This document shows positions 10,920 to 27,529 of a stretch of DNA of 64,000 bases, piece after piece. The DNA comes from Candidatus Bathyarchaeota archaeon (GTDB lineage Archaea > Thermoproteota > Bathyarchaeia > 40CM-2-53-6), in NCBI GenBank assembly GCA_963733055.1, contig CAVTBR010000001.1, forward strand, positions 288,001 to 352,000, read 5' to 3'. Positions within the stretch are counted from its first letter, which is position 1, and each line of letters starts with the position of its first letter. The translations under genes were made by a program, and so were the position numbers. The notes below the pieces were generated by a model, which was not told the origin of the DNA, ran no database searches, and saw nothing but the letters and a program-made list of their open reading frames with translations.

Positions 10920-11355
10920 GAAGGGCGGCCAACCTGTTGGGTGATTACCCTTCCACCAGGTGGCAGGGCTCAAGCGACTTCGCTTGGTTCAAGGTCTTCA
11001 TGATGATTCAGCACCAAATCAAAGCTACCGTCCTGAAAAGGAAATTGCACGCTTCGACATTCAACCACCTCGATTCCGAACTTGGTTAAGCGTTTCTTTG
11101 CAACGGGAACGTTGACCTTCCATTCTTCTGTGGCAACAACCCGATTCGGGAGACTGGAGAATACTTCCGCTAGAAACTCGCCCCCTCCTGTGCCCATGTC
11201 CAGAACAGATCTGGCGGATTTAGCTGCTTCACGAACTAATGAACCATAGTTCCAAGGCGGCGCAGCACCGACCCGTCGCCACGAGTCATTCGAGAAACTC
11301 CAGCCGGAGAAATGGCGCGCCCGTTCAACGTAAGGTCGCAGTGAATCTATCGCCT
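10920..11355 (-). pseudogene. Class I SAM-dependent methyltransferase pseudogene
   Basis: FSGWSFS..PPWNY..LDMGTGGGE; in-frame TGA at 10970-10972 within EVA*ALPPGGRVITQQVG; no start codon and C-terminally truncated. Confidence 0.8.
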
Positions 11356-11639
11356 TAGTGATCTGTCGGCATTTTCTTCTGGGCGATCAGCTTGAACTCG
11401 AAGTGGAATTGGTCGGGCTTCTGGTTCAGCTGATTGATCTTCTCCGACAAGTAGTGGGGTCGGAGTCCCACGCTCATGTCGCAGATGTCGTAGTACGCTT
11501 GACAGATGTTAGGCGGCACCCTCATGGTCCCTAGCTTCGTGAAACCCATCTTAAGCATCTCTCCATCGAGGTCTTCCTGCGCTTCTAGGAGTGTGGCCTC
11601 GTTAAGGTGTTGGATCTCGACCAGAAGTAGCATGCTCAT
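11355..11639 (-). CDS. Hypothetical protein
   Basis: C-terminal 94 aa of ORF 11355-11864, not overlapping the nuclease gene. Confidence 0.45.
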   Translation of the reverse strand: MSMLLLVEIQHLNEATLLEAQEDLDGEMLKMGFTKLGTMRVPPNICQAYYDICDMSVGLRPHYLSEKINQLNQKPDQFHFEFKLIAQKKMPTDH

Positions 11640-11699
11640 CCACCACGCTTCACTATCGATAGCGAGAACATAAGCGTTCGATGCTGACATATCGAGTGC

Positions 11700-12275
11700 G
11701 TGCGGTGGTGTTTGGTGGAGGACCCTCAGGCTCATTGGAAAGCGATGGGTCACCTGTGGGAGGTGGCTGCCGAATCTCTGCTCAAGAAAATGGGGTATCG
11801 GATACTGAGAGCCCAGCACCTTGACATCAACGTGAAGCGCGAGAGACGCCTGCGCAATCTTCACAAGGACAAAGACTTCGATTGGTACTTGTGGAAATAC
11901 CCTGACTATATCGTCGAACGGAAATCCACCATTGGTCTCGTGGATGTGAAGAGCAAGCCGCTTCTGCCCCTTCTCGGGAGATCGTCAAGATGGGGGGATT
12001 ACGGAGCCGGCTCAATCTCTTTCACTGGGATGGAGATGAGAGCCTATCCCGAGTCGAGGATCCCGGTCCAAGTTTTGCTAATTCGCTATCGTGATAGAGA
12101 CGACTTGAGGAGACTCGGCCCCGTTGAGTTTAGCCTTATTCCCTTTACCGAGTTCGAATTCAGGCCGGACTGGGCTGGTGGTTTCCCGCCCGCATCAGTG
12201 CGCTGGAAGACGCTGAGTTCTCGAGCAGCCTACAGCATTCTGCCAAAGGCTGTAAAGTCTCTTGGTGTAAAGTAG
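11700..12275 (+). CDS. PD-(D/E)XK restriction-endonuclease-like protein
   Basis: GHLWE..AESLL..GY, YPDYIV, LVDVKSK. Confidence 0.75.
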   Translation: MRWCLVEDPQAHWKAMGHLWEVAAESLLKKMGYRILRAQHLDINVKRERRLRNLHKDKDFDWYLWKYPDYIVERKSTIGLVDVKSKPLLPLLGRSSRWGDYGAGSISFTGMEMRAYPESRIPVQVLLIRYRDRDDLRRLGPVEFSLIPFTEFEFRPDWAGGFPPASVRWKTLSSRAAYSILPKAVKSLGVK

Positions 12276-12327
12276 GTGCAGTCTCCGTGTCTGATCATTA
12301 GATTTGACCAAGCTGACATGTCTCACG

Positions 12328-12834
12328 TTATCCAGACTGTTTCCATCTTTGGGTTGCTATTCGTATGATGAGGTCTCTGCAAGTGACTAGGTCACTCCAT
12401 GCTTCCTCATCAGAGACCCAGAGCTGTACTGGCTCGAGCATTCTGGTTGAATGGGCTTGTTCGTAGTACGCTCGGTCTATGCGCTGTGCGAGGTGGGCTC
12501 CAAGGTTTCCATGCTCTCTTGCAGCATCGATTCGTTTTGCGAAATCCTCATCGATCAGGTGGTTCGTCTTTGCCCACTCGAAATTTTCCTGCCACACAGT
12601 ATTCTTTACGAGCTCGTGTGAAGCTGAGCGATCGGTGATCGTTGGCGTAGTTTTCGCTGTATGAAGTAGCGTCTCCATGGACGCTCTAGTGCATAAGCAG
12701 CAGGCGAGATTGGCGTGAGCATAGAAGCACCGGACCGCCTCCCCGAAGAGGTCTGCAGCTTTCGATAGTACGAACCACTTATCGACCACGTTCTTGTTCG
12801 TGGTCAGGGAAAACCAGAGTTCACTGTAAGCCAA
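12328..12834 (-). CDS. DUF4145/HEPN-like protein
   Basis: EAVRCF, RASMETLL, REHGNLGAH. Confidence 0.7.
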   Translation of the reverse strand: MAYSELWFSLTTNKNVVDKWFVLSKAADLFGEAVRCFYAHANLACCLCTRASMETLLHTAKTTPTITDRSASHELVKNTVWQENFEWAKTNHLIDEDFAKRIDAAREHGNLGAHLAQRIDRAYYEQAHSTRMLEPVQLWVSDEEAWSDLVTCRDLIIRIATQRWKQSG

Positions 12835-12864
12835 TTGTGTCTACCCGCTTCTTAGTGAGGTGGT

Positions 12865-13533
12865 CTATTTGATTATTTGACCAGTTTTGTTTGACCATAT
12901 CAATAGGTCAAGATCGTCCATCGGAATGGAGCTGTCCCTAGCCAATTCCATCATCCTCTTCTCATATTCAAGATACTGAGACTTTCTCAGAGCTTGCTCG
13001 TAAATCTTAGAAACGTAGTTAAACTTCTTCAACTCCCTCTGGATATGTCGGTCCAAGAGCGCGAGCCCGCAACCCAATCCAATTCCAACATTTCTGAGAA
13101 ACTGACTTGCGACTTTCCAACCAACACCACTCTTCTGAGATGCGAGATATTCTCTAGCGCCTAGGATCTCCCAATCATTGGTTCTCTTGAATTTGCCTTC
13201 GAGAACATACTTGATTCTCATGGTTTCTTGATTGGCGAATTTGTCACGCCAACTTACGATGTGTATGGACCTATTCCAGAGCGCATAATGGTGCTGTCTT
13301 AGGTAAGTTTGGATTTGCTCATTTGTACCGTCAAAGAGCAACCTACTGCTCTCAAGTTCGGCAACCAAAGGGAGCGTTCTCGCAGCATCCTGCCTTGCTA
13401 GCAAAATGCCATAGCAAAGTTCGGCAAAAACGCCTTCATCGCTTTTGCCCCATCCGGTTCTCAATTCTTTAAGCCGCTCTTGAATCAAAACGCGCTTTGT
13501 TTGATATGCTTGCTGAAGGTCTTGCACTGTCAT
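12865..13533 (-). CDS. Ogg2-type N-glycosylase/DNA lyase (HhH), divergent
   Basis: FAELCYGIL, GVGWKVASQFLRNVG, LDRHI, YLEYE, LDLLIW, terminal Lys; start may extend to 13599. Confidence 0.85.
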   Translation of the reverse strand: MTVQDLQQAYQTKRVLIQERLKELRTGWGKSDEGVFAELCYGILLARQDAARTLPLVAELESSRLLFDGTNEQIQTYLRQHHYALWNRSIHIVSWRDKFANQETMRIKYVLEGKFKRTNDWEILGAREYLASQKSGVGWKVASQFLRNVGIGLGCGLALLDRHIQRELKKFNYVSKIYEQALRKSQYLEYEKRMMELARDSSIPMDDLDLLIWSNKTGQIIK

Positions 13534-13640
13534 TGGGTTGGCGCGTTGTACGATTATCGGTTTAACGTAAACTGATTCAGCCGACATATCACAGGCCACT
13601 CTCGACAGTTTCAGCCACGAACCAACTTAGTCACGAAGAG

Positions 13641-14276
13641 CTAAGCGACGGAGTTCCCGTTCCTATTCAGAGCATCATTCAACGCTTCGAAAACAGGTAT
13701 CGAAGCTGCAACTATCCGTTGGGCTGTGGGTCGATCAACATCGACTTGGTGGAGCGCTCGATTGCAAATCCTTGTTATGCTCACAATTGGTTCGACCAAG
13801 TTATCTGAAAGTATCCCTCTGCTAGCAAGGATCTTTACAATCTCTCCAAGTGGATATTTCACGGGCTCGTCAGGTCCAGATAGCTGTCTAAGGACCTGTT
13901 CAAGTCCCATACGGATCGATGCCAAAGCTAGATTCGGATCTTCATCAATCACCCTGTAAGCCAGTGCAACTTGGTTCGGAATGAGCGGCGCGATCGGTCT
14001 AGAAGTAACGATCCGTACAGTTTGCCTTTCCAGTGCTTCAACTTCTTCACGAATCTCCAATCCCCCTCCCCCGGGGAGCGATATCTTCGTCACAAAAGGG
14101 AAAAGCCAGGGAGATACGAAAATCAGAAAGAACACAACACTCGTAGTGTCAATTTGTCCCCATGACGCAGCGTGAAAGACAATCATTAACCCTGCCGCTA
14201 GAGAAATTAACAGTGAGGTCGCGTAGTATCTTCTTCCTCTAAACAATTTGCTCGACAATTGCTGCGATGACACCAC
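13641..14276 (-). CDS. 2-TM + DUF4145/HEPN-like protein
   Basis: Two N-terminal TM helices; LALASIRMGLEQ, ICNRALH. Confidence 0.65.
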   Translation of the reverse strand: MVSSQQLSSKLFRGRRYYATSLLISLAAGLMIVFHAASWGQIDTTSVVFFLIFVSPWLFPFVTKISLPGGGGLEIREEVEALERQTVRIVTSRPIAPLIPNQVALAYRVIDEDPNLALASIRMGLEQVLRQLSGPDEPVKYPLGEIVKILASRGILSDNLVEPIVSITRICNRALHQVDVDRPTAQRIVAASIPVFEALNDALNRNGNSVA

Positions 14277-14329
14277 GTGCGTATTCTATCCATCGCATTA
14301 ACTTGAATCTTTTCGGAGTTACCAGCGCG

Positions 14330-15388
14330 CTAATAGAACTGCCAGAACCGACGGAAGCCTTCGGCATCACCGATGCTGAGCATCTGCATGAGAGATCTCA
14401 GTTCACTTCCATCTACGAGCTGCACACTCCTCTTGTTACATTCTTCGCGCGCGTGACTCGTGTCTATCTTCGTCGTTACCATAGCTGCCCGCACTTTACC
14501 GGAATTGCCGTCGAAGAGCTCTTGGCTCAAGTATTCAGCGCATTCTTTGATGCTAGAGATTTCTTTATCCTGGGGAAGATCCATGGTACATGAAACGACG
14601 TAAATAGTGCTGTACTGCGGAGCATATGCAATCAGGTCTGCGCTACCTTTAGTGAACTTTGACTCTTTGATAATCAGTTTCTCGAACTCGTCGAGCTTGA
14701 CGACGCAAAAGACACCGGAGGAGGAGAGAAGCCATGATACCGCTCGTTCGAATACCCTGCTAGGCCGTGAAACCTTCTCGGGGGAGAGTAATTGTTTGCT
14801 CAAATCCTCGACTGAACAAAATCGGTCTAGAACCAATCTTAGTGGAAATTCAACCCCGAATACCCTGTTCGGATGCTTGAGGAGAAGACCTGAAAGTTCT
14901 CTGCCTTCTTCATCGAGATTTAGTCCACCAAGAAGCAAGCGCGCATCTATGTGGTCATGGATCGCCCAATGTTGCAGCTTAGTTGAGAGAGTAACTCGAT
15001 TAATAGAATTACCAAGTTTTTCAACTCCAATATTTTTCAAGCAGAATTCATATTCCTCCTTCGGCGGTCCGCTTCGCGCACCCCACCCCTCGCCAGACAA
15101 CAGATGAACGACCAGTCTAGCGCTGTTGAAGCGGTCATGGAAAGATATCGTTGATGAAAAAGTTGATCCGTCAAATGAAACAGCGTCAATCCGAGCATAA
15201 ACTGGCAACGATACGAAAATACTGTAACCAGCATTCATGCTTTGATCTAGGTGAACCTGAAGGCAGGAGCTCACCGCCTGATAGATGTCTCTATACCCAA
15301 GCGTTCTGACGTCGAAAGAGGCTCGGTCCAACGTCTCTTGGTCGGGACCGGCGTCTCCACGATTTATCGCTCCGCCATATTGCGCCAT
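14330..15388 (-). CDS. Protein with C-terminal Mrr-like restriction-endonuclease-fold domain
   Basis: FERAVSWLL, ADLIAY, VVSCT, VQLVDGSEL; may be fused by frameshift to 15364-15771. Confidence 0.6.
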   Translation of the reverse strand: MAQYGGAINRGDAGPDQETLDRASFDVRTLGYRDIYQAVSSCLQVHLDQSMNAGYSIFVSLPVYARIDAVSFDGSTFSSTISFHDRFNSARLVVHLLSGEGWGARSGPPKEEYEFCLKNIGVEKLGNSINRVTLSTKLQHWAIHDHIDARLLLGGLNLDEEGRELSGLLLKHPNRVFGVEFPLRLVLDRFCSVEDLSKQLLSPEKVSRPSRVFERAVSWLLSSSGVFCVVKLDEFEKLIIKESKFTKGSADLIAYAPQYSTIYVVSCTMDLPQDKEISSIKECAEYLSQELFDGNSGKVRAAMVTTKIDTSHAREECNKRSVQLVDGSELRSLMQMLSIGDAEGFRRFWQFY

Positions 15389-15771
15389 TCCTTTTCAATG
15401 AAGTATGTCGAGTATCTGGACAGACCACAATTCAACGATGCGATATCGGGCACCGGTTTTATGGCGACAGGCACTTCTTGAAGCTCAACTTTACCCGATG
15501 CGAAGGCTTGTTGGAAATCCTTCCAATCGTCCTCCACTGTCCCGCTCGCATAGTATGTTCGAAAGCACCGAGTAACAATAGGCTTGGTTCGTCTTACGGT
15601 TGTAGACCCGTCGCAGAGGAAGCGAATCGACGATGCGTAGTTTACCCACTCATCACCTTGTCGAAAACATGCAAATCGCACGTCAACTCGGCTAAAGAAA
15701 TGAGACAGTTCTTCAAGAAGTTGTCCGAACTTAACAGCAGACATACTAACGCTTAGGATCAGCGCAGACAA
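15364..15771 (-). CDS. Hypothetical protein; possible N-terminal part of the downstream nuclease gene
   Basis: Overlaps the next ORF by 25 nt on the same strand. Confidence 0.5.
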   Translation of the reverse strand: MSALILSVSMSAVKFGQLLEELSHFFSRVDVRFACFRQGDEWVNYASSIRFLCDGSTTVRRTKPIVTRCFRTYYASGTVEDDWKDFQQAFASGKVELQEVPVAIKPVPDIASLNCGLSRYSTYFIEKEWRNMAER

Positions 15772-15925
15772 AGAGTTTCCTAAATTTGCAACGCTCGTCT
15801 CCGATTGAGGAACTAGTCGAAGGCGACAATGCTTTGTCCCACAAAATGTCTAGTTTTAGAGTGTGTACCACCAATCATGTTTCGAGACCACGTTGGTAGA
15901 CATACGGGCTTCGGAGCGAAGAACC

Positions 15926-16972
15926 ATGCTGACGCTTGCACCAGTCTTCAACGTTGATTTTGAACAACCTCAGTTGGAGCTTTCAGAGAACCTGTGCTTA
16001 CGCATTTTGACAAATGAGGAAGTTCAGGTCATTCGTGAGAATGAGAACAGATTCAGAGCGCTTCCTCTCAACGCGCTTACGAAACTGAAATTTGCTATAG
16101 CCTGTATCACTGAAGTATCCTCCCCATGGGATCTCCTAACCCAGAGCAGGGCAACCAAACGGATTAACCTCGTAATTGCCGCTTTCCGACTCTGGAGCGG
16201 TGTCAATCTCCGATCACCTCTCAGATTTCAAAGGATAGAAGTAAGCAACGTTTTGTACAATCTACCAATCGGCGATCGAGAGAGAGAATCACTCTTAAAG
16301 AAGATTAATCCATTTTCTATCACTAAATTGAGCTCTCCTGAACCCTTTGCAGTAAGCGAAGTAAATCGATTCTCAAAGGCGGATGCAGAAGCGTTCGCTC
16401 AGCTTTTCAGAAGTATGGAGAAAGACAATCAAGGCAATTTGAAAGTGGCTTTTCAACGGCTGAAAATGTTCTCAGAGGAAGAATGGCCTGAGAAGATCAT
16501 TGATGCAATGATAGCCTTCGAAGCCCTTTACGTCAAGAGAGGAGATAAACGGTCCAAGTCTGAACAGATCGCCTCAGGAGCTGCAAAGCTCATAGGGCAA
16601 ACCCCTGCTGTGGCCGAATTGCTTCACGCTGCATACAAGCTAAGGAATAGAATCGTGCATGGAGAAGATGTGACCTCAGACCACTGGAATGAACTCACTA
16701 GACTGGCAATCATGAACGACCCTGATTTGAAATCCTTGATATCTGAACCGACTACGGACAGTCACGAAGAACTTCCACCAAACGCCCCCGTCGAAGCGAT
16801 AGGCAACTGTTTGTGTGAATCGATTAGCGCTAAACTAACACATGAAATCGACAACGAGGATAGACACGCAAGAGAGGGGGCCGGAGCGGAGCAGGGCTCA
16901 ACGTCACAGCCGCAACATGACCAAAGAACCGAGCTTTACCATAGCGACGATTATGATGGTTATCAGGATTAA
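15926..16972 (+). CDS. Apea-like HEPN domain protein
   Basis: IIDAMIAFEALY, AYKLRNRIVHG. Confidence 0.8.
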   Translation: MLTLAPVFNVDFEQPQLELSENLCLRILTNEEVQVIRENENRFRALPLNALTKLKFAIACITEVSSPWDLLTQSRATKRINLVIAAFRLWSGVNLRSPLRFQRIEVSNVLYNLPIGDRERESLLKKINPFSITKLSSPEPFAVSEVNRFSKADAEAFAQLFRSMEKDNQGNLKVAFQRLKMFSEEEWPEKIIDAMIAFEALYVKRGDKRSKSEQIASGAAKLIGQTPAVAELLHAAYKLRNRIVHGEDVTSDHWNELTRLAIMNDPDLKSLISEPTTDSHEELPPNAPVEAIGNCLCESISAKLTHEIDNEDRHAREGAGAEQGSTSQPQHDQRTELYHSDDYDGYQD

Positions 16973-17060
16973 CAAATGGAGCAATCGAAGAAAACTTCAA
17001 AAAAACGGCCCAAAATGAGGAGAAATCCGTAGAAAATGGTCTATCAATCCCATGAGATGA

Positions 17061-17412
17061 TGGGGCTGGTGGGATTTGCACCCGCCGGTGTCCGCTAGGT
17101 TCAGCCTGCAGACTCACCGGTCTATCTTCCGAGTCAGCTTTGCACATGTAACTGACACCGATCGGTATAGTATACGAACCTGGAACATAAGCCTCTGGGA
17201 TAACATCGCCAACATGAATCGTCTTGAGGTGATGGAAGGCAAATTACTCTCATTATAAGTCGATTCAGCAGCGCAGAATTCCGGACTACGATGCCATACT
17301 TAGGAGCTAGGATAGCTCCCTTGATCTCCTATGCCTCGCCGGCAGGGTCGCACATGGGCGCAGTTGTGGAGACAACTGAAATCGGATTCAACGTACACGA
17401 CCCTGATCTCCT
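17061..17412 (-). ncRNA. Candidate ~350-nt structured RNA ending in a tRNA-like T-arm/acceptor 3' strand
   Basis: Five consecutive stem-loop domains with G-U pairs that form only on the minus strand; ends GCGGG-TGCAAAT-CCCAC-CAGCCCC-A. Confidence 0.5.
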
Positions 17413-17437
17413 GTTCAATGTATCCTCTGGAATCAAT

Positions 17438-17824
17438 CTAATTGAAACACACATCTACTCGTGCCTTGGATAAGAGGAATTCTTGAAGTCTTTCCGTGCT
17501 GCTGAAACTTCTCTTGACCCCGACTTCGGATCTCGATAGTAGGTATACATGTGATTTGTCTAAAGCAACGTTTTCGTCCTCCCCTTGTAAGCTGACCAGA
17601 GCCAGTATATCGTATAATTTCCGCTCCTCGGGAGCTGGCCATTGATCATTCACGGAAGTCTTCACCTGTATAGTCCGTAAACTGAGTCCTTTAGCTGCTA
17701 TGAGATCGTTTCCACTATCCTTGAGAGTGAACGATGCTTGGACTCCATACTGAAGCAGTCGCATAACCACAAGCAATTCTCCTATTGTTCCCGTCTTTAG
17801 ATTCTCATCCAACGGATTTGCCAT
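17438..17824 (-). CDS. Small PD-(D/E)XK endonuclease (PDDEXK_5 / Hjc-like)
   Basis: GTIGELLV, GNDLIA, TIQVKTS. Confidence 0.8.
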   Translation of the reverse strand: MANPLDENLKTGTIGELLVVMRLLQYGVQASFTLKDSGNDLIAAKGLSLRTIQVKTSVNDQWPAPEERKLYDILALVSLQGEDENVALDKSHVYLLSRSEVGVKRSFSSTERLQEFLLSKARVDVCFN

Positions 17825-17976
17825 GACGATGCGTAACCTCGGTCGGAGATTTACGTACTACCTAAATTCTCTCAGGCCAACAAAATGCGAGTAGTTTCGC
17901 TGGTTTTTTCAGGTAATAATAGGAGAGGAGCGCATTTCGAGCAACAGGCGCACAATTTACTCAACCGGTGAGGTAG

Positions 17977-19200
17977 CTATTTTGATGATTTGAGATACTC
18001 AAGCGCGTCGCTTATTGCATCCAATTCTTTCTCACGCAAACCGCCGTATTCGAATATGGCTCTCACGGACGAGATCGAATACTTTTCCAATGCGAACTTC
18101 CACAACACGCTCAACATCAAATCAGCAAGAAGTTTGCTGAAGATTAAGTCATGGTGGCCGATCAACTCCAACTTACCTTCATGAACCATGGAATTACGTT
18201 TGAGCAATGTCACGTCTACTTCGGATTCAAAGGCTGGAGATTTGTTCACGAAATATTTGCGAACTCTGTCTTTGAGGACCTTCTCTGGAGTTATCTGCCT
18301 CAAGGTAGCAATAGTCTCAACTACGATCCAATACTTCAGAAAAGCAAAGGCAGCATCGGTTTCAGTCACAGCAGAGCTGTACACATCGAGAGATTCAAGT
18401 AACAGACTCGCAAGGTTGCTATCCTCGAGTGGATAATACATCTCATCGAGAACTTTCTTGAATCTTGCCACATCAAGCAGCTTTGTTCCTGTCAGGTAGG
18501 GATCTGGAATATCAACAACTGTCCAATCGATCAAGCCTTTCTTTTCGAATGCGAATATACTTCTTGAAGGTCTGAAATTCGTTAGAGGTGTGTTGGACAA
18601 TGGATGGATTGTTCCTCCGACGCATTCATAGTTCACGAGTGCAAAGAATCTACTTACGAGATTAGACAACTCTCGAAACGCAAAGGAGGCATCTCGAGCC
18701 TGAATCTTAGAGCTAACCCAGACCAAATTCGCCAAAGAAGGAACGTAACCTGATGCCAACTGAAAATACTCTTTGATCCGATCCTCTGCGATGGTCGACA
18801 GGTCTGAATGTGTCTCAAAGTCCAGCTTTTGCGCACGGACATCGCAGGTCGGGCCGAATTGCTTCACGAAATCAGCCGGTAGCGGAGTCGGGGAGATTAC
18901 GATCAGCTCTTTCATGGGTAATGAGTGCAGGCTCGCGAGTTCGTTCTCTATCTCTCTGACTAGTGATGGAATCGAGTCAACGCCGTTTCCTTTGAATTTG
19001 CTGATTGCTTTTTCCACGACGGCAAGAGTCTGGTTGCTTCTCAATTGCCAAACTCGCTTGCGAACGTTGTTGCCGTCGGACAATTGTAGACTGGCAGCTA
19101 TGATCTCACAGCAGTGCTGAATTTCATGTATCCGATTTGGTCGGCCCAAGAATTTCAGAGAGTGATTTGCTAGTGCAAGGAACGAATCATCTGACTGCAT
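17977..19200 (-). CDS. Apea-like HEPN domain protein
   Basis: SLDVYSSA, FLKYWIVVE, KRNSMVHEG. Confidence 0.75.
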   Translation of the reverse strand: MQSDDSFLALANHSLKFLGRPNRIHEIQHCCEIIAASLQLSDGNNVRKRVWQLRSNQTLAVVEKAISKFKGNGVDSIPSLVREIENELASLHSLPMKELIVISPTPLPADFVKQFGPTCDVRAQKLDFETHSDLSTIAEDRIKEYFQLASGYVPSLANLVWVSSKIQARDASFAFRELSNLVSRFFALVNYECVGGTIHPLSNTPLTNFRPSRSIFAFEKKGLIDWTVVDIPDPYLTGTKLLDVARFKKVLDEMYYPLEDSNLASLLLESLDVYSSAVTETDAAFAFLKYWIVVETIATLRQITPEKVLKDRVRKYFVNKSPAFESEVDVTLLKRNSMVHEGKLELIGHHDLIFSKLLADLMLSVLWKFALEKYSISSVRAIFEYGGLREKELDAISDALEYLKSSK

Positions 19201-19298
19201 AATAGGATGACCGTCGTAGCCGTGTTTTCAAGCCTTTGCTGACGTTCGTCTGTTCCTGATCATCGAGAGCCTACCTTTATTTCAGCAGCTAGAACAGA

Positions 19299-19398
19299 GT
19301 ATTGACAAGGAATCGAGGGTAGATTCTGTTGAGTAATCTAACTTCTGTGATTTTTCAATACGCAAAACAGGTGCGGCGGTAACGAAATGCGTATATAA
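19299..19398 (+). promoter_or_regulatory. 63-bp imperfect inverted repeat followed by BRE/TATA promoter of the HTH operon
   Basis: GTATTGA/TCAATAC, AATC/GATT and TAGATT/AATCTA arms; CGAAA then GTATATAA at 19391-19398. Confidence 0.55.
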
Positions 19399-19432
19399 AG
19401 TGCTATTGCGTTATAGAGTAGAGCTGAATTGT

Positions 19433-19789
19433 ATGGCTGACGAAAACGAAGAACTCGGACTGCTGAGGGAAATCAACGAGAATTTGAAAGTGATTAGAAA
19501 GCTCACTGAGATACAGCTTCACGGACCAATCAAGGACGAACTGACAAAGTTCGCCTCGTCAGCAGAGCGGAGAAAGCTTTGGATGCTGTGTGACGGAACT
19601 ACTACCACCATAGAGATGTCGAGAAGAATCGGCGTTAGTCCGAGAGCCGTTCAGTATTTCGTCCAGGATGGACTGAAAGCCGGTTTCCTCAGAGTCGACA
19701 GACGGGGTTATCCAAGTCGAGCAATAGACTGGACTCCGCCAGAGTGGGAACGAGCTCAAGGCGAAACAAGGGAGAGCAGAAATGAGTGA
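19433..19789 (+). CDS. Helix + winged-HTH protein 1
   Basis: LLREINENLKVIRKL helix; LCDG.TTIEMSRRIGVSPRAVQ. Confidence 0.75.
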   Translation: MADENEELGLLREINENLKVIRKLTEIQLHGPIKDELTKFASSAERRKLWMLCDGTTTTIEMSRRIGVSPRAVQYFVQDGLKAGFLRVDRRGYPSRAIDWTPPEWERAQGETRESRNE

Positions 19790-20087
19790 GTCAGAATTCA
19801 AGCACTTGACAAAGCAGAATGACACGATCATTACACTGCTGGGACATTTGGCGTTCAAAGCGCAAGATATCAAGGACATTGTGACTAAGAAGAAGCAGAA
19901 CCCCGACAACTATGTCAAAGGATACAATGCCTGTGACGGACAACATACAGTATCTCAGATTGCTCAGATAGTGGATGTCAAATCTGGCACGCTCACGCCC
20001 ATTCTCCAGGAGTGGGAAGAATTGGGGATTATTCGTGAAATCGAAAAGCCTGGAGGCAGGTTCTACAAGAAGCTGTTTCCTATTTAG
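19782..20087 (+). CDS. Helix + winged-HTH protein 2
   Basis: ACDG.HTVSQIAQIV..GTLTPILQEWEELGII; 8-nt overlap with the previous gene. Confidence 0.8.
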   Translation: MSESEFKHLTKQNDTIITLLGHLAFKAQDIKDIVTKKKQNPDNYVKGYNACDGQHTVSQIAQIVDVKSGTLTPILQEWEELGIIREIEKPGGRFYKKLFPI

Positions 20088-20095
20088 GTGAAAAC

Positions 20096-20332
20096 ATGGA
20101 CGAAAAACAGTTCACAGAACTCATGGGCAGGCTCGGTGTCCTAAGTAAACTCCTCGCTTGGAATATTCTCCAAGGCAAGGAAAGTCTAACTCAGCGGGCT
20201 CTGGCACTCTCCTCAGCCGGTTTGGAAAGGAAGGAGATTGCATGGTTACTGGGTCAAGATCCAGATCTGATTAGTCAGACACTATACCAGGCCAAGCAGG
20301 CAAAGGGAAGCAAGAAGGAGAGAGTCAAATGA
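20096..20332 (+). CDS. Helix + HTH protein 3
   Basis: AGGTGA SD; LSSAGLERKEIAWLLG..LISQTL. Confidence 0.75.
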   Translation: MDEKQFTELMGRLGVLSKLLAWNILQGKESLTQRALALSSAGLERKEIAWLLGQDPDLISQTLYQAKQAKGSKKERVK

Positions 20333-20598
20333 GCGATCAAGAACAATTCGCCAGACTGATTGAGCTGATTGAGGCGATCCTGAGAACGAGAATCACGGAG
20401 CTGTTGGACAAGGAGCTAGATGATCCCAAGAAGAAGAAACTATACGAACTTACTGGCAGAAAGAAAATAGTCGAGCTTAGCAAACTCACTGATCTCTCAA
20501 CAGGAACTATCTCGGGCCTCTGGCAGAGATGGTATTCGATGGGCATCCTGAAGAAACAAGGCAAGCTCTACGTCAAGTTCTTCGAGGAGGAGATCTAA
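20329..20598 (+). CDS. Helix + winged-HTH protein 4
   Basis: ATGA overlap; LYELTG..IVELSK..LSTGTISGLWQRW..GIL. Confidence 0.75.
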   Translation: MSDQEQFARLIELIEAILRTRITELLDKELDDPKKKKLYELTGRKKIVELSKLTDLSTGTISGLWQRWYSMGILKKQGKLYVKFFEEEI

Positions 20599-20685
20599 GA
20601 CGACTGAAGAACCGCTGAGAAGAACTACAAGGAATAGAGAGACGTGCGTCTCTTAGTGTCTCCGGCAGAAGAAGAGGTGATATCG

Positions 20686-20850
20686 ATGCCAAAGAAGCCA
20701 AAAACAGTTGAAGAGCACCTCGAAATCATGGAGAATCTGCTCGCTGGTGTTATTCTAAAGCGTGAACCGAACGTGAAAAAGCTAGCCAAGATTATGGGTG
20801 TCTCCAGTGACAAGCTTACTGAATTGTATCCTACTTCCAGGAAGAAGTGA
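20686..20850 (+). CDS. Helix + HTH microprotein 5
   Basis: GAGGTGA SD; LEIMENLL, VKKLAKIMGVSSDKL. Confidence 0.65.
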   Translation: MPKKPKTVEEHLEIMENLLAGVILKREPNVKKLAKIMGVSSDKLTELYPTSRKK

Positions 20851-20875
20851 GAGAAAACCGAAGAGTGATTGACGG

Positions 20876-21577
20876 ATGTTGGATCGTGCTTCACTCATCA
20901 GCAATTTGAGAGCGTTCTGTGCTGGATCGCCCAAGAAAATAGCAATTTTGAAAGCCGTCCGAAAGCGAACATATTACAAGGAAGTTGCGAAAAATGTTCA
21001 CGCTAGAGAGGACTACTGTTCTAGCGTTCTTAATGGCTTACGGGCAAATGAGTTAGTCGAAGGAAAACGCGGTTTCTATCAGCAGACACCGTTGATGAAA
21101 ACCATCAACATAGATTCTGAGTTAAAGAAGCAAAGTGGAAGAGTACGAGTCGCACAAACAAAGCAAACTCCTACAGAGAAAATTAGAGTACTTGACCTAG
21201 AAAAGGCGCTTGATCAGCTAGACGTCGACTCGGTAATCAAGAGTGACTGCTTTCCTCTGCGAAAACCCTACAGAACTCATGTAGGGGAAGCGTATCTAAC
21301 TGTAGAGAATTTCATCAAACAAGAGTTGCGATTGCCCGATTCCCTCGTGGGTACAGATCTCGTTTCCGAGGCTGTCAAGAAGGGACTCTTCGATAGGTCG
21401 GTCAATTCTGAGAAAGAAGGTCTAGCTCTTCTCTTCAGAGGAGCCGTGCTTTGGCTTAGAAACCCAGCTCATCATAGGAAGGGAGACATGCCTAGAGAGG
21501 ATGCCCTTAAGATGATACTGTTTGCAGACTACCTGTTGAAGTTAGTTAGAAGGCAAAAAGAACTGAACAAACTCTAA
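20876..21577 (+). CDS. wHTH + TIGR02391 (Ymh-like) domain protein
   Basis: N-terminal HTH; EAYLTVE, GTDLV, SEKEGLALLFRG, LRNPAHH. Confidence 0.8.
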   Translation: MLDRASLISNLRAFCAGSPKKIAILKAVRKRTYYKEVAKNVHAREDYCSSVLNGLRANELVEGKRGFYQQTPLMKTINIDSELKKQSGRVRVAQTKQTPTEKIRVLDLEKALDQLDVDSVIKSDCFPLRKPYRTHVGEAYLTVENFIKQELRLPDSLVGTDLVSEAVKKGLFDRSVNSEKEGLALLFRGAVLWLRNPAHHRKGDMPREDALKMILFADYLLKLVRRQKELNKL

Positions 21578-21715
21578 ATGATATTCGCAGTTTGACCATG
21601 CGCTCAACTCATGTCTATTTGGTCGATATAACAATCGTTCGCCGATATTGCAGATTTTTCGTGATCAAAACAGACATCAAGATAAGATTGATCGGAGCAT
21701 TTCTTTCGGAGACAA

Positions 21716-24238
21716 TTGGACGTTCAGGAGTGCCTAGAAGCCATCGTAGAGAGCATACGTAAGAAGAAGATGTCTATCTGGGTTGGAGCTGGAATATCTC
21801 TACCGTCTCTTCCTTTGGGAAATGAATTGAAGTTTTGCATACTTGAGGAAGTATGCGCCCATCCCTCACTTCGGAAATATGGAGATCGATTGCAACGAGG
21901 GCAGGACATAGCGAGAGATGTGGAGAAGCTTCCGCTCGAATGGATAATTCAAATCACATCCACCCTGGATTCGTCGATCCTTGCTTGCGTCGCCAACGTG
22001 TTTAGGGGCGGCTCTTCGAACAAGAATCATTTCCTGATAGCTCAGCTAATTGCGCAAGGTTTTGTCTCGCAGGTCATGACAACAAACTTTGACCTCCTGA
22101 TCGATAGAGTTCTCGAGAACGAGCTAGGATTACGAAGAGGATCCACTTTCAACCTACTGTATCGTGAGTCTGAATTTGAAAATATCAAAGCGATCAAAAA
22201 CCGACCCACCCTCTACAAGATTCATGGCAGTGCAGATGACGAATCTAGCATAAGAGTCACTTTGAACAATGTGGCGAGCAGGGGACTTTCGGACCGCAGA
22301 GCCGAAGCCTTGGAACACTTTCTCAGCTCGGGAGACATTCTTGTTCTTGGCTACAGCGTGCGAGATGACTTTGACATCAATCCGATTCTGTCGAAAATAC
22401 CATCGAAAGGGCGTATTTTCTACGTTAGACACGTAAGGGAAGGATTCAGCATAAGGAAGCTGCCAAAAGCATTCTCTAGGTTTCCAGGAACAACTATTCA
22501 TTTTGACACGGCTAAGCTGATTGACTATCTGTCGAAGTCAATTCTAGACCAAGATCCGAAGCAACTCTCGGTGAAGATGGGATTAGAATCTGGGAACTGG
22601 AGGAAAACGATCGAGGCATGGGCGGAAAGGCTCCAATTGTCTAAGAGATGCCTTATCATGGGATCGATTCTTCTTGAGATACGGCGGAATGATTCATATG
22701 AATTATTCAGAAGGGCGAGCAAAGCATGTGTCGTCGATCATAACCTTCCCGGATTAGCGACCGCCCTCTATAGTATGGGCATGATAGAGCAAGAAAGAGG
22801 CAGGTACAACAAAGCGCTGACATTTTTCGATCAGACGCTGCGGCTTGACCGTAGACTCAACGATCAACATGGGATAGCGGTTACCTTACGTTTGATGGGG
22901 AAAATCCAACTAGACGTCGGCAATTTTGCCAAGGCTGCAAGGCTATTCCTTCGAGGTGCAAATATTCTTTACGAGCTTGGGGATTTGTATGAATTTGCCA
23001 CTGCTGTCCAGGACTTGGCTGTTTTGGAGATGGACAATGAAAATTATCCTCGAGCGACAGCGTTCTTCGGTCAGGCAAAGGAAACCTTCGAGAAGTTAGG
23101 CAACGTGTCAGGAGCAGCGGGAGTGTCGCAAAATTTGGCGATAATTGAGGAGCGAAAAGGAAACCTGAAGGAGGCTTCAAGACTATGTCGAAAAGCCTTA
23201 GAGACCGCATCAAGCCTCTCAGATGAACCTGAAATCGGCGCTGCACTTCATCATCTCGGCACTATTGAGCAGAGTCTAGGAAATTATGCGACGGCCAAAC
23301 GATTCTTCGATCGGGCTTTGAAGATTCGACTAAGCCTGAAAGACTTGGCAGGATTGGCAAGTACAACCAGTGAACTGGCCAAACTCGAAGTCCTGTTAGG
23401 ACATTATGGTAGAGGTCGAATTCTGTACAACAGAGCGAAGAAGTTCTTCTGCAAGCTGGATCACTCATATGGAATCGCCAATTGCCTTCAAGAGCTGGCA
23501 ATAGTAGATGTGTACGAGGGGAAATATCAGAGGGCCGTCCAGTTGACGAATGAGAGCCTTGAGATTAGGAGGCAGGGTCCAAACCAATCAGCTGTCGCAG
23601 CATTGCTGGACCAATTGGGATCAATTGAGTTGCTGCAACGGAAATACGTTGAGGCGAAGACACATTGCAAAAAGGCGCTGCAAATATTTCGCAAACTGGA
23701 CGATCAAGCTGGAATTGCAGGAGCTCTTCATGACCTCGCCAGTGTCTACGAAGAGAGTGGTGACCTCCCTAGAGCCATAGCGATGTATAATCACAGCCTG
23801 AAAATTAAGCGGAGAATCAAAGATCGTCATGGAATGGCCAAAACTTTTCATCAGCTAGGTTTAATCGAGTATCGCAGAAAACACTACGACAGGGCCAGGA
23901 AATATTGTGACGATAGTCTACGAATCAAACGGAAGTTAGGCGACAAACACGGAATCGGTGCGACGCTGCTTCAGCTTGGTGCAGTCGAACATGCGAACAA
24001 CAATCTTGTTCAAGCAGAGCAGTTCTATACTGAGGCTCTGGCGCTTTTCCGCGCCATCGGAAGCCAAACAGCCGAATCTTCCGTTCTAACAAATCTTGGA
24101 ATACTCGAAGTGACTAATCAGAATTACGATGCGGCAGGGGAATTTTTCAAAGAAGCTCTGACAATAGAACGCAAGCCGGGCAATCGCCATAATGCTGAAC
24201 AGCTGCTTATGACACTACAGGGTCTCTCTAGACTCTAA
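21716..24238 (+). CDS. SIR2-like (SIR2_2) domain + TPR repeat protein
   Basis: WVGAGIS, TTNFD, KIHGS, LGYS.RDDFDI followed by many ~40-aa TPRs. Confidence 0.9.
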   Translation: MDVQECLEAIVESIRKKKMSIWVGAGISLPSLPLGNELKFCILEEVCAHPSLRKYGDRLQRGQDIARDVEKLPLEWIIQITSTLDSSILACVANVFRGGSSNKNHFLIAQLIAQGFVSQVMTTNFDLLIDRVLENELGLRRGSTFNLLYRESEFENIKAIKNRPTLYKIHGSADDESSIRVTLNNVASRGLSDRRAEALEHFLSSGDILVLGYSVRDDFDINPILSKIPSKGRIFYVRHVREGFSIRKLPKAFSRFPGTTIHFDTAKLIDYLSKSILDQDPKQLSVKMGLESGNWRKTIEAWAERLQLSKRCLIMGSILLEIRRNDSYELFRRASKACVVDHNLPGLATALYSMGMIEQERGRYNKALTFFDQTLRLDRRLNDQHGIAVTLRLMGKIQLDVGNFAKAARLFLRGANILYELGDLYEFATAVQDLAVLEMDNENYPRATAFFGQAKETFEKLGNVSGAAGVSQNLAIIEERKGNLKEASRLCRKALETASSLSDEPEIGAALHHLGTIEQSLGNYATAKRFFDRALKIRLSLKDLAGLASTTSELAKLEVLLGHYGRGRILYNRAKKFFCKLDHSYGIANCLQELAIVDVYEGKYQRAVQLTNESLEIRRQGPNQSAVAALLDQLGSIELLQRKYVEAKTHCKKALQIFRKLDDQAGIAGALHDLASVYEESGDLPRAIAMYNHSLKIKRRIKDRHGMAKTFHQLGLIEYRRKHYDRARKYCDDSLRIKRKLGDKHGIGATLLQLGAVEHANNNLVQAEQFYTEALALFRAIGSQTAESSVLTNLGILEVTNQNYDAAGEFFKEALTIERKPGNRHNAEQLLMTLQGLSRL

Positions 24239-24250
24239 AGGGACGAAAAT

Positions 24251-27184
24251 TTGATGGAGTCTGTGTTGTTACTTGCAGGCTTGTTGCTCGCCAGATTACT
24301 TCTCGAGAAGCTTCCAGAAAGCGTTGCATCTGATGCAATTATAGATTCGGGGAAGGCGCTTGCCCATCGAATAGGTAGAAAGAATCTTGAAGAGCTCATT
24401 GTGGAATCGATCAAAGAAGCCGCTGAACAGTCTGCAAGAGAGTACGGCGATATCAGACAAGATATTTTCAAGAGTGCGTTGAAAGCGCTTGAGTGTCCTT
24501 CTGCAAAAGAGATTATCCGGAGAAGAAGCGATGCACTGCTTCGAGCAAAATTCACCTCCGAGGAATTCAAGCAGCTCTCTCAAGAGTTAGCAGCCACGAT
24601 CTATGTCAAGTCAGGTATTTCCAAAGAAGACATTGAACGCGTTCTGAGAGAATCTCTACGTTTGTTTCATGACCACTTACTTGCGAAGATCGCTGAAGAC
24701 CAGAGGCTTACGAATTTTCTTGGGCTTAAGTTAGGAATTCAAAATGCTCTTGCACTAGAGTCCCTCACGAGTGCTTTTAGAGCCTCCAGGAAAGATACTC
24801 AAAGTGCATTTCAACCGTTCACTATTCTACCGTTATCGGATTTGCGGAAACTGGACACGGTTCTCCATTATAACCCACCCCAATCAAGATTGCATGGATA
24901 CGTGCCGAGGGAAGAGATTGACTTCGATCCATCTGGAAGAAGGATCATTATTCTAGGAACTCCAGGATCGGGCAAGACAACCGCTCTGCTGAAAATCCTT
25001 GAAAGAGCAAAAAGCGGAACCATAGCGGTAATACACAGATCCTTTTCCGCCGATGATATCCTCGGACTACTCAACGCTATCTCGATTGGTGAGTCAATTA
25101 TTCTTGTTTGGGACGACCTGCATTGGGTCGGCGAACCGTCTCTCGTTCCGACAACTATTTGTAAGATCCTGGAAGTCACTTCTAACCCTACCTTAATACT
25201 GGCTGCAAGATCAAACGAATTCGAGTCATTACGTCGAAAGGTATCGGAACACTTCTGGTCTATGTTTGAAAAACATCAGCTCGTGGACCTCGACACCGAT
25301 CAGACAAGGAGGCTAGTAGACATTTGCAAACAGGAATTCGATGTGACGATGGATGAGGAACTTGAGAAACAGCTAATCTCCGTAGTCAAAGAAGCCGATC
25401 CTACTCCTCTCTATATTGTGTCGGCTATTCTAGCCTTGAAAGGGAAATCGCTTGAAGCGACCGACATCCACAGAATTCCTGCAAGCGCTAGGGACATTTG
25501 GGCAGGATTATTCTCCTCACTCGATTCCGACAACAAGAATGTCTTGAGGTCTCTGAAATTACTTGACGAAGCACAGCTTCCTCCTTTGCATTGGCTTGCC
25601 TCAGCAATATACGAATGCGTCTTTCGTGGAGACGAAACGAAATTCCAATCAGCCTTGGACCAACTTAGTAGCATGGGATGGGTTCGATCTCTTGGCTCAC
25701 GTATTCAGTGTCATGACCTCCAACTCGAAGCGGTTCAGATCGACGATCTTTCCTACGACAATTTGCGTTTTCTCTCATCTAGTCTCAACCTAACCCCTGA
25801 AGGCAAATTCACTGTTCTTCATCACTTTGGCATAGTGCTTGACCGAAGAGGTAGGTATAACGACGCAAGAGCGCTGCTCGAAGAAAGCCTTGCAATTGAA
25901 CGTGATGTTGGGAACAATTTGTCAGAGGCTTTAACGTTGCACCAATTGGGAAAGATCGAACAGGCGATAGGCAACTACGACGTCGCCCAGAAACTCTATG
26001 AACAAAGTCTCGAGATCAAACGGAAACTAAGAAATGAAGCTAGCATACCTTCAACGTTGCATCAGCTTGGCGTTTTAGCCTATCTTAAGGGCGACTATGA
26101 TGCTGCCAAGCGATTGTACGGGGAGGCAGAGAGTGCCTTTCGCAAGTTTGATGATCAATCCGGATTAGCTGGGGTACTGCATCAACTTGCACTCATAGAA
26201 AAGGAGAGGGGAAACCTTGATGAATCAGCAAAACTCGCCGAACAAAGTTTGAGGATTAGTCAAACACTAGGAGATCAAGAAGCAGTGCCTCAAGATGTGG
26301 TGCTTCTTGCTCAACTAGAAGATTCCAGAGGTAATCGTGATACAGCGAAGCGACTGTACGCAGAAGCTGAAAACGCTTTTCGAGAACTAGGCGATCAAGT
26401 GGGGCTAGCAATCGTGTTACACCAACTCAGTATGATGCTTCAAGACGAAGGCAACTTGGATGAATCTCTTAGATTGTGTAATGAGAGCTTGAGAATTGAG
26501 CAAAAGATCGGGCATCCATTAGGAATAGCTGGAAGCTTGAATCAGTTAGGTAGAATTCAATTTCAAAAAGGCAACTATGATGAGGCCCAGAGATTCTATG
26601 AGGCCAGCTTGGAAATTACTGGTAAACTTGGAAATCAATCGGAAAGCGCTCAGACACTGCATTCCCTGGGCGTAATCGAATACATGAGGGGCAACTACGA
26701 TAAAGCCACGAAACTGTACAATCAGGCCCTTGAAGTCTACGGTTTACTTGGGATGAAAGCAGAGATTGCCTCAGTTCTGTATCAGTTTGGCAACATGGCA
26801 GTGTCAAAGGAAAATTACGATGACGCAAAGACGCTTTATGAACAATGCCTAGAAATCGATCGGGAGGTTGAGAACCCATTAGGCATAGCGAGAACTTTAG
26901 TGGCACTGGGTAGAGTGGATGCTCTGAAGGATAACTTTGAGAATGCAAGGAAACTTTTCAATGAAAGCCTGGCGATTGCTCGCAAGCTTGGAAACATATC
27001 AGAGGAAGCGACGGCGAATGCTCAACTCGGTAGCCTTGCGGAGGCGGAGGGTGATGTGAAAAGTGCTGTCAAGCTGTGGTCACAAGCATTACAAATTTTC
27101 GAGCAGATAGGCGAGAGAGAAAAAGCGGACAATCTAAGGCCCGAGCTCAAGCGTCTAATGGACAGGTTACGACTTGGACAGTAA
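24251..27184 (+). CDS. STAND-like P-loop NTPase + TPR repeat protein
   Basis: Helical N-terminus, Walker A GTPGSGKT, Walker B LVWDD, TPLY (GxP-like), HD motif, then TPRs. Confidence 0.85.
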   Translation: MMESVLLLAGLLLARLLLEKLPESVASDAIIDSGKALAHRIGRKNLEELIVESIKEAAEQSAREYGDIRQDIFKSALKALECPSAKEIIRRRSDALLRAKFTSEEFKQLSQELAATIYVKSGISKEDIERVLRESLRLFHDHLLAKIAEDQRLTNFLGLKLGIQNALALESLTSAFRASRKDTQSAFQPFTILPLSDLRKLDTVLHYNPPQSRLHGYVPREEIDFDPSGRRIIILGTPGSGKTTALLKILERAKSGTIAVIHRSFSADDILGLLNAISIGESIILVWDDLHWVGEPSLVPTTICKILEVTSNPTLILAARSNEFESLRRKVSEHFWSMFEKHQLVDLDTDQTRRLVDICKQEFDVTMDEELEKQLISVVKEADPTPLYIVSAILALKGKSLEATDIHRIPASARDIWAGLFSSLDSDNKNVLRSLKLLDEAQLPPLHWLASAIYECVFRGDETKFQSALDQLSSMGWVRSLGSRIQCHDLQLEAVQIDDLSYDNLRFLSSSLNLTPEGKFTVLHHFGIVLDRRGRYNDARALLEESLAIERDVGNNLSEALTLHQLGKIEQAIGNYDVAQKLYEQSLEIKRKLRNEASIPSTLHQLGVLAYLKGDYDAAKRLYGEAESAFRKFDDQSGLAGVLHQLALIEKERGNLDESAKLAEQSLRISQTLGDQEAVPQDVVLLAQLEDSRGNRDTAKRLYAEAENAFRELGDQVGLAIVLHQLSMMLQDEGNLDESLRLCNESLRIEQKIGHPLGIAGSLNQLGRIQFQKGNYDEAQRFYEASLEITGKLGNQSESAQTLHSLGVIEYMRGNYDKATKLYNQALEVYGLLGMKAEIASVLYQFGNMAVSKENYDDAKTLYEQCLEIDREVENPLGIARTLVALGRVDALKDNFENARKLFNESLAIARKLGNISEEATANAQLGSLAEAEGDVKSAVKLWSQALQIFEQIGEREKADNLRPELKRLMDRLRLGQ

Positions 27185-27407
27185 ACGTTCCAAATGATGC
27201 TCCGTCAGTCCACGTGATTTGGGTACTAAATATTAGCTGACCTTGGTAATAGAGTGATATCCAGCCTGCCATGCTTGTTGCGAGCCTCTGTGATATTCAT
27301 CGGCTCTTGTGATTTTGAACTTCACCCACCACCTTCTTCTCACATCTCAGGAATGCGTTTCGGCTCAAACGGTAGGCAAGTTTTCAATTAATCAATCTGC
27401 GGAATCG

Positions 27408-27529
27408 TGGCGGGCCCGCGGGGATTCGAACCCCGGACCCCAGGCTTCTCCCGCTTCCTGAAAGCGTTTAGAGGGCCTGTGCTTTAGACGCTCAAACCAG
27501 AAGCACTATCCAGACTGAGCTACGGGCCC
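27408..27529 (-). tRNA. tRNA-Arg(TCT) with two introns (22/23: 27484-27505; anticodon loop: ~27447-27468), encoded CCA
   Basis: GGGCCCG acceptor, TTCGAAT T-loop, CAGGC/GCCTG anticodon stem, BHB-like intron folds; spliced length 75 nt + CCA. Confidence 0.88.

Follow-up and report, generated by a model that had tools for sequence, protein, structure and literature searches.

The stretch analysed here (the window) comprises 64,000 nt of contig CAVTBR010000001.1 from a Candidatus Bathyarchaeota archaeon, and carries two large adjoining genes whose products both end in arrays of tetratricopeptide repeats (TPR). In the first (gene 1, product P0001) the repeats follow a SIR2 domain, and in the second (gene 2, product P0002) they follow a STAND NTPase module. 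A preliminary description of the sequence had proposed that the pair forms a split defence system of the Avs or nucleotide-binding leucine-rich-repeat (NLR) type. The open reading frame (ORF) coordinates agree with that description in that the two genes are co-oriented and 12 nt apart, and its account of the two proteins was also recovered: for gene 1, a SIR2-like domain joined directly to TPRs without an NTPase (Pfam) and, for gene 2, a helical N-terminus, a STAND-like NTPase and TPRs of ca. 40 residues with no recognisable effector (Pfam, AlphaFold2 and Foldseek). The parts of the pair are located as follows.

21716..24238, + strand: gene 1, SIR2-TPR protein P0001, 840 aa (ORF; Pfam SIR2_2 and TPR_12; PADLOC)
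21716..22720, + strand: gene 1 SIR2 NADase-type domain and linker, residues 1-335 (invariant motif columns; profile against PDB)
22721..24238, + strand: gene 1 TPR_12-type array, residues ~336-840 (Pfam TPR_12, 6 stretches)
24239..24250, + strand: spacer of 12 nt from the stop codon TAA to TTG, with AGGGA just past the stop (sequence reading)
24251..27184, + strand: gene 2, STAND NTPase-TPR protein P0002, 977 aa (ORF; Pfam; AlphaFold2; Foldseek)
24251..24925, + strand: gene 2 N-terminal all-helical domain, residues 1-225, opening with a conserved hydrophobic helix, 2-20 (DSSP of the model; Kyte-Doolittle)
24926..25810, + strand: gene 2 predicted STAND NTPase module, residues 226-520, with K242, D288/D289, R320, P386 and C-H488-D (motifs, alignment, model)
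25811..27184, + strand: gene 2 TPR array, residues ~521-977 (Pfam; a helix every 20 residues in the model)

Domain layout of the two proteins

Gene 1 starts with a TTG codon preceded 6 nt upstream by GGAG. Its product belongs to the SIR2_2 family (PF13289), which matched residues 120-230 with an E-value of 8.9e-12 and 45.7 bits for a cut-off of 24.5, and from about residue 340 it is composed of about 12 TPRs of 40 residues (TPR_12, E 2.5e-62), while no P-loop or NTPase family was found in it by the Pfam scan. The SIR2 domain displays the motifs GAGIS (24-28), TTNFD (with N124 and D126) and KIHGS (with H170). G24, G26, S28, N124, D126 and H170 are invariant in an alignment of gene 1 with seven relatives (A2, 8 sequences), and N124, D126 and H170 are still invariant across the 26 sequences of a second alignment (A6). 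The Asn and the His are named here as a putative catalytic pair by analogy with a structure entry whose name mentions DSR2 H171A and, beyond that name, N124 and H170 are what we take to be the SIR2 catalytic pair. Since the motif residues are invariant among relatives, the enzyme looks active as judged from its sequence. PADLOC matched the SIR2 part only, with two ThsA models (E 5e-9 and 8e-9) and a Dsr1 model (E 3.7e-7). When compared with the PDB, the SIR2 profile built from A2 matched DSR2 (8k98, E 5e-8, query positions 107-230), ThsA (6lhx, E 8e-4) and chains titled SIR2-family or Sir2-superfamily proteins. The TPR array is 64-75% identical in close relatives. Overall, the layout of gene 1 is of the Dsr1/DSR2 type, with a SIR2 domain and a repeat sensor but no NTPase.

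Gene 2 is read from a TTG codon at 24251 and has an ATG one codon later at 24254, the gap to gene 1 being 12 nt from the TTG and 15 nt if translation starts at the ATG. Both genes are long, bear known domains and have homologues elsewhere, and hence are not chance ORFs. Six short contigs from one DNA run are at least 99% like the window; they are not independent of it and none bridges the junction between the two genes.

The product of gene 2 has a Walker A motif (GTPGSGKTT, 236-244) and a Walker B motif (VWDDLH), followed by about 11 TPRs (TPR_12, E 3.1e-63). Its match to nSTAND_NTPase5 (PF25199; E 3.6e-6, 27.3 bits) lies below the 34-bit cut-off of that model, which gave sub-threshold matches in 14 of 14 control genomes and a match at E<=1e-5 in 15 of 59 gene 2 relatives; a weak match to nSTAND3 was also obtained with Pfam, and no DNA-binding domain was matched. 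An AlphaFold2 model based on an alignment with the 59 relatives (mean predicted local distance difference test, pLDDT, of 85.7) is all-helical over residues 1-186, continues with a P-loop sheet, a helical domain and a beta-hairpin (478-487), and ends in helices spaced by 20 residues (516-974) that correspond to 40-residue repeats. An earlier model of residues 1-520 derived from a 4-sequence alignment (pLDDT 42.8) was discarded. The top Foldseek match of the retained model in the PDB is an archaeal STAND-TPR protein (6mfv_A, E 9.7e-13, with low template-modelling (TM) scores of 0.25 and 0.35), and the other matches listed are mostly TPR-repeat proteins. Among the 59 relatives, G236, G241 and K242 are invariant and conservation reaches at least 90% for G239, D288, R320 and P386, while C487-H488-D489 is invariant in the close family (family consensus 'HD.QLEA'), with H488 falling in a predicted winged helix. 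In our reading of the alignment and the model, these residues would be equivalent to Walker A and B, the sensor-1 Arg, the helical-domain Pro and the winged-helix His of STAND NTPases. With both this motif set and the match of its predicted fold to a solved STAND protein, gene 2 is classed as a putative STAND NTPase.

The N-terminal domain of gene 2 gave chance-level matches alone when compared to Pfam at E-values up to 10. Its assignment to NNH2, a NACHT N-terminal helical domain, was considered and set aside, the score obtained with the Atlas (0.85) being below the level rated reliable. By iterated profile search, the sequence of this domain is recognisable in four of 152 NTPase relatives, which are the four closest. 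Its first helix is hydrophobic (19-residue Kyte-Doolittle mean of 1.84 at position 1, and of 1.70-1.86 in P0012-P0014), and residues 13-53 form its best-conserved stretch with many invariant positions, yet residues 20-40 have a pLDDT below 50. This N-terminal segment may serve as an output or docking part. At E<=1e-3, the NTPase family as a whole counts 185 representative relatives. The P-loop could be located in 137 members and in most of these lies 200-240 residues from the N-terminus, so that an N-terminal region of that size is typical of the family. TPRs occur in 35 of 59 members, and of the 66 families matched, the 25 commonest include no known effector family. As far as sequence comparison goes, gene 2 can be placed in an nSTAND-like family that is uncharacterised and marked by a conserved hydrophobic helix at the N-terminus.

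The TPR arrays of the two proteins are 30% identical to each other, a value equal to their identity with unrelated TPR_12 arrays, and the possibility of recent duplicates having a common ligand was rejected on this ground. A complex prediction combining gene 1 residues 1-840 (A6) with gene 2 residues 1-160 (alignment A1) gave a score of 0.00 in two runs with an uncertain fold of the partner, which is evidence neither way.

Relatives of the two genes and their neighbours

A word-based search returned eight proteins related to gene 1, and JGI metagenomes scanned with the alignment of SIR2 domains yielded at least 201 stretches encoding gene 1 relatives, from which 80 loci were kept; at least 3 kb were available downstream of the SIR2 ORF in 31 of these and upstream of it in 40. 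Among 60 related genomes, gene 1 was found in a single one (G021, 47% identity, cut by the contig end), and neither gene occurs in the 22 remaining genomes of the genus, bar one 47% SIR2 match. A scan of viral contigs with gene 1 yielded four distant loci.

The 80 loci were searched with residues 1-520 of gene 2 and with a 109-sequence NTPase profile. A clear gene-2-type NTPase ORF was found in only one of them, L031 (ORF 9072-11924, profile E 7.4e-11, located 244 nt downstream of the SIR2-TPR gene), while a 119-aa ORF in L068 gave a marginal profile match (E 7e-4). Immediate same-strand neighbours of at least 200 aa with a Walker A motif were restricted to L031 and to a FeoB gene in L027. The co-occurrence of the two genes expected from the preliminary description was thus not observed on the gene 1 side, which is the side that these counts cover: homologues of gene 1 are mostly without a gene 2 homologue, including in the locus L007 described below, and the neighbourhood is not conserved among gene 1 relatives (1/80 loci). 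These data indicate that the SIR2-TPR family is widespread and mostly solo.

A quick maximum-likelihood tree of 76 SIR2 domains, supported by SH-aLRT values only, places the window with P0003 (99), then with P0004 and L007 (100), inside a clade of 19 rows (99). Sixteen of these rows correspond to fetched loci; at least 3 kb of downstream sequence is available for seven of them, none of which has the gene-2-type NTPase. L031 falls in a distant clade beside L030 and L036, both without this NTPase, and the paired state needs at least two changes on this tree. The sister lineage L007 has an 840-aa SIR2-TPR gene, 62% identical to gene 1 over 806 aa, and shares with the window a block of four small upstream genes (window 19400-20598, L007:3048-4638) with 54-74% identity as detected by tblastn. 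No trace of gene 2 was found by tblastn in L007 within ca. 6 kb on either side; that it persists there as a deleted remnant was considered and rejected, the only tblastn matches being cross-matches within the TPRs of gene 1. Between the four-gene block and the SIR2-TPR gene, the window has a Ymh gene whereas L007 has a Schlafen/AlbA_2 gene and an ORF with weak DUF4062/TIR-like similarity, the cargo of L007 including HEPN_Swt1 as well. The block and the SIR2-TPR gene have the look of a backbone that is conserved while its defence cargo can be exchanged.

Other neighbours of gene 1 relatives include a type I restriction-modification (R-M) system (L044), a Peptidase_U49 gene and a large helicase gene (L050), TPR-only genes (L011/L012) and housekeeping genes, as well as a second SIR2-TPR gene in L030, where the two SIR2-TPR genes stand in tandem (L030:5119-10572). 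One locus (L084:4104-8402) encodes a 1433-aa protein in which DUF4062 is followed by TPRs, SIR2_2 and more TPRs; a 2026 preprint (10.64898/2026.09.04.749371) reportedly renames DUF4062 as a NADase domain. In seven further loci (L014-L019 and L022), the SIR2 and TPR parts are encoded by separate overlapping genes, again without an NTPase. There, a TGA at the domain border closes the SIR2 ORF, which the TPR ORF overlaps in the +1 frame, with an ATG located 5-8 nt before the stop in three loci and with TPRs confirmed by Pfam in all five ORFs scanned. This situation corresponds either to a natural split with translational coupling or to a programmed frameshift. Because enzyme and sensor can be separate polypeptides in the absence of an NTPase, it is argued that SIR2 and TPR constitute the functional unit.

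Close homologues of gene 2 are few and correspond to P0012 (74%), P0013 (62%), P0014 (43%) and the fragment P0015 (47%). Searches with gene 2 gave only three weak partial matches across 185,579 species, each represented by one genome, no match at E<=1e-5 in 400 sampled genomes of the phylum, none in 40 relatives (including the 22 of the genus) and none in viral contigs.

Genomic setting

Genes 1 and 2 are located at the tRNA-proximal end of a strain-specific island, the main features of which are listed below.

3057-4556, strand not stated: M32 carboxypeptidase gene, island flank (homologues in G018 and G015)
4557..27410, no strand: variable island of ~22.8 kb, from the M32 carboxypeptidase gene to the tRNA (flank comparison with G018 and G015; guanine-plus-cytosine (GC) content)
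19400..20598, + strand: four small genes (129, 101, 78 and 89 aa), two with weak helix-turn-helix (HTH) or winged HTH matches (family scans; tblastn)
20876..21577, + strand: gene for a Ymh protein (PF09509) of the HEPN family, directly upstream of gene 1 (Pfam E 3.8e-13)
27411..27529, - strand: tRNA gene with two insertions (introns), the 3' end of which bounds the island (Rfam RF00005, 41 bits)

Only 1.4 kb separate the flanks of the island in G018, and 8.3 kb in G015; because the same flanks are so much closer there, ca. 22.8 kb (4.6-27.4 kb) at the 3' end of the tRNA are considered as variable DNA. The GC content is 0.46-0.47 over 14-28 kb, compared with 0.50-0.53 in the flanks. The tRNA itself is 84-94% identical in five genomes of the same genus, in which it lies ca. 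50 nt from the leucyl-tRNA synthetase (LeuRS) gene. Its two insertions are of 29 nt in the D-loop region and of 27 nt in the anticodon region, and the gene was missed by ARAGORN and found with Rfam. The 3' part of the tRNA matches several further places in these five genomes; within the window, neither a second copy of this part nor convincing direct repeats of the attachment-site type were found.

The + strand gene preceding gene 1, which encodes the Ymh protein, ends at 21577, i.e. 138 nt upstream, a distance given correctly in the preliminary description. Ymh is listed as a HEPN family occurring in operons with R-M systems in the part of PMC3710099 that was available. Besides small repair and resistance genes, the island contains a terminase large-subunit gene (6673-8106, - strand; Terminase_6N, E 5e-19) adjoined by ORFs having no family match, and this gene may represent a provirus remnant. 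The window is archaeal in its gene content, as it encodes a ribosomal protein P0 with a RL10P insertion domain, a class I LeuRS and an alanyl-tRNA synthetase (AlaRS); between the AlaRS and ribosomal protein genes lies an ORF of 498 aa (34636-36132, + strand) that weakly matches LAGLIDADG_3 (E 5e-5). Finally, a second SIR2_2 gene was detected elsewhere in the same genome (L098:7873-10251, G000:C1:1465872-1468250), in which the domain is fused to an ABC-type ATPase (AAA_15/AAA_21) and which is flanked by another AAA_15 ATPase gene and by an ORF weakly matching HNH; the locus is of defence type but distinct from the present one.

Interpretation and comparison with known systems

The reading that we favour, and to which we give an even chance, is that the two defence genes are co-transcribed but separable, can each act without the other and are joined only in a small archaeal clade. 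Since relatives of gene 1 nearly always occur without gene 2, the two genes probably represent neighbours or loosely associated partners rather than a single protein split in two. In this reading, they were paired recently and in one small clade only, and gene 1 does not need gene 2. Of the split Avs/NLR-like system initially proposed, the domains, the operon-like spacing and the defence flavour hold, while the division into executor and switch does not agree with the mostly solo occurrence of gene 1 homologues. A defence context is supported by the adjoining HEPN-Ymh gene, the low GC content and the lack of the island in genomes of the same genus. Under the reading of separable genes, each would have a sensor and, most likely, also an output of its own. 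The TPR solenoid of gene 1 would hold the SIR2 domain inactive until a viral protein binds, upon which the freed domain (N124, H170) would hydrolyse NAD+ and the infection would abort. In gene 2, binding of a ligand to the TPRs together with nucleotide exchange would result in oligomerisation and in the clustering of the N-terminal helical domains, with the hydrophobic helix 1 as the likely output, either at the membrane or as a docking site. The domains, the motifs, the setting in an island and the distribution of relatives are shown by the data; we infer in this scheme the NADase activity, the triggers, the oligomerisation and the output of gene 2, as well as the co-transcription of the two genes.

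Several observations weigh against genes acting apart and would better fit a clade-specific two-gene system, a reading that we hold to be possible though clearly less probable. In such a system, gene 1 could act alone and gene 2 would be an add-on STAND switch without an effector of its own, which would sense a second ligand, oligomerise and recruit or license the SIR2-TPR protein, for example by docking its N-terminal segment in the TPR groove of gene 1, as in a sensor/helper NLR pair or a split Avs5. The 12-nt gap and the common strand suggest that the two genes are on one transcript, which favours partnership. P0003 (gene 1 type, 72-75%) and P0012 (gene 2 type, 69-79%) each occur on one contig only, which in both cases measures 45,016 bp and comes from the same sources; these nearest relatives thus probably keep the pair, at 72-74% identity, and to this extent the neighbourhood appears to be conserved. 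P0004 lacks its C-terminus and P0013 begins without a Met, though the collection writes M for the TTG start of the window, and our guess is that these two proteins are a third pair broken by assembly. Identity decreases by matching steps in the two families (72/60/44% for gene 1 homologues and 74/62/43% for those of gene 2), and no close gene 2 homologue was seen away from gene 1, the contexts of P0013, P0014 and P0015 being outside the data. In the distant L031, a SIR2-TPR gene 34% identical to gene 1 is followed by a STAND-like NTPase-TPR gene, i.e. the same order. No known enzymatic effector family was found in gene 2 with Pfam, PADLOC or NCBIfam. Its N-terminal segment, being well conserved but of low pLDDT, fits a part that would fold on binding, and SIR2, nSTAND3 and TPR/Sel1 repeats are united in the single chain of Avs5 according to the available part of PMC12931631.

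What speaks against a two-gene system is that relatives of gene 1 are overwhelmingly solo and that in L007 gene 1 is intact, at 840 aa, in the absence of gene 2. Gene 1 also has a full sensor array, which would be superfluous for a pure executor, no counterpart of the N-terminal domain of gene 2 was found in it, and no adaptor domain or motif is common to both proteins. None of the 152 NTPase representatives carries SIR2, and no long protein related to the SIR2 domain of gene 1 turned up, the latter being weak evidence. As for L031, its NTPase is only 26% identical to gene 2 around the P-loop, with weak matches to nSTAND3 and AAA_16, and since this relation is distant and other defence-type genes are found around it, it may be a chance neighbour. 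Overall, it is probably only the nearest clade, i.e. the window and probably P0003/P0012, that keeps the pair. We regard as rather unlikely an archaeal sensor/helper pair of a novel type, in which the conserved hydrophobic N-terminal helix and the helical bundle of a STAND-TPR protein lacking an enzymatic effector would, upon oligomerisation, insert in the membrane, like plant coiled-coil (CC) or fungal HeLo domains, or would dock in the TPR groove of the NTPase-less SIR2-TPR protein, the STAND switch thereby licensing a Dsr1-like NADase encoded upstream. Still less probable in our view is a function other than antiviral, with gene 1 as a sirtuin-type protein deacylase on a TPR scaffold and gene 2 as a MalT/AfsR-like STAND regulator, both acting in host physiology or in the biology of mobile elements. 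TPR_MalT and AfsR-like TPR matches would agree with it, as would the best structural match, the archaeal STAND-TPR 6mfv, whose entry title mentions no defence role. Neither family has experimental data, and a literature search on SIR2-TPR proteins returned no paper, although the supplements of PMC12803255 (STAND clades) and of the Avs5 paper may list these families. Such a function is at odds with the SIR2_2 type of gene 1, whose closest relatives of solved structure comprise, among others, the defence NADases DSR2 and ThsA, with the lack of a DNA-binding domain in gene 2, and with the absence of both genes from the 22 other genomes of the genus (bar the 47% SIR2 match). It also sits poorly with the variable low-GC island and its adjoining HEPN gene, and with the type I R-M, Schlafen/AlbA_2, HEPN_Swt1 and Peptidase_U49 genes that adjoin relatives of gene 1.

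SIR2 NADases and STAND/NLR-like sensors are central to prokaryotic immunity, and almost all tested examples are bacterial. Defined here are a widespread SIR2-TPR family, some natural variants of which encode enzyme and sensor separately; a STAND-TPR family, so far uncharacterised, having an N-terminal helical region of conserved size and no assigned output; and a small archaeal clade that joins the two in one putative operon. If genes 1 and 2 cooperate, they would represent a natural experiment in wiring an NTPase-free sensor-effector to an NLR-like switch; if they do not, they would be another case in which genes lying close together in a defence island do not form a system. A sensor/helper pair, if true, would link two defence layouts treated separately so far and would place helper-type NLR wiring in archaea.

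When compared to known systems, gene 1 resembles Thoeris ThsA in its SIR2_2-type NADase domain and differs from it in that no SLOG family was found with Pfam, PADLOC or NCBIfam; no ThsB/TIR model was matched either in the 12 window neighbours scanned. The model of gene 2 has 802 aligned columns with 6mfv, with which it has an NTPase and a TPR sensor in common, whereas identity is 14%, TM-scores are 0.25 and 0.35, the N-terminus is another one, and gene 2 had no sequence-level match in the PDB. The pair has the same three kinds of parts as Avs5, as described in the available part of its source, namely SIR2_2, an nSTAND-type NTPase and TPR-like repeats. Unlike in Avs5 and other AVAST proteins, which are single polypeptides, SIR2 and NTPase are here on separate proteins, each with its own TPRs; gene 2 has an extra N-terminal domain of 225 residues, and no fused relative was found. 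DSR2, which is triggered by the phage tail tube, has in a single chain a SIR2 domain and, after it, a long helical sensor region, and its catalytic His (H171A) is taken to be equivalent, while its similarity to gene 1 is confined to the SIR2 core. Finally, in the available part of a preprint (PMC12803255), Dsr1 is described as SIR2 fused directly to a TPR-type sensor without an NTPase, which senses the phage major capsid protein and is of a type reported to be common to the STAND family Avs7. Similarity of gene 1 to Dsr1 does not extend over the full length and is limited to positions 14-209, the SIR2 part, of the 1227-position PADLOC model PDLC04166. Gene 1 is moreover an archaeal protein of 840 aa with regular 40-residue TPR_12 repeats and a STAND-TPR gene 12 nt downstream. 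What it has in common with Dsr1, as far as the latter is described in that source, is an N-terminal SIR2 domain joined directly to TPR-type repeats with no NTPase, the two sensors being likened by layout alone.

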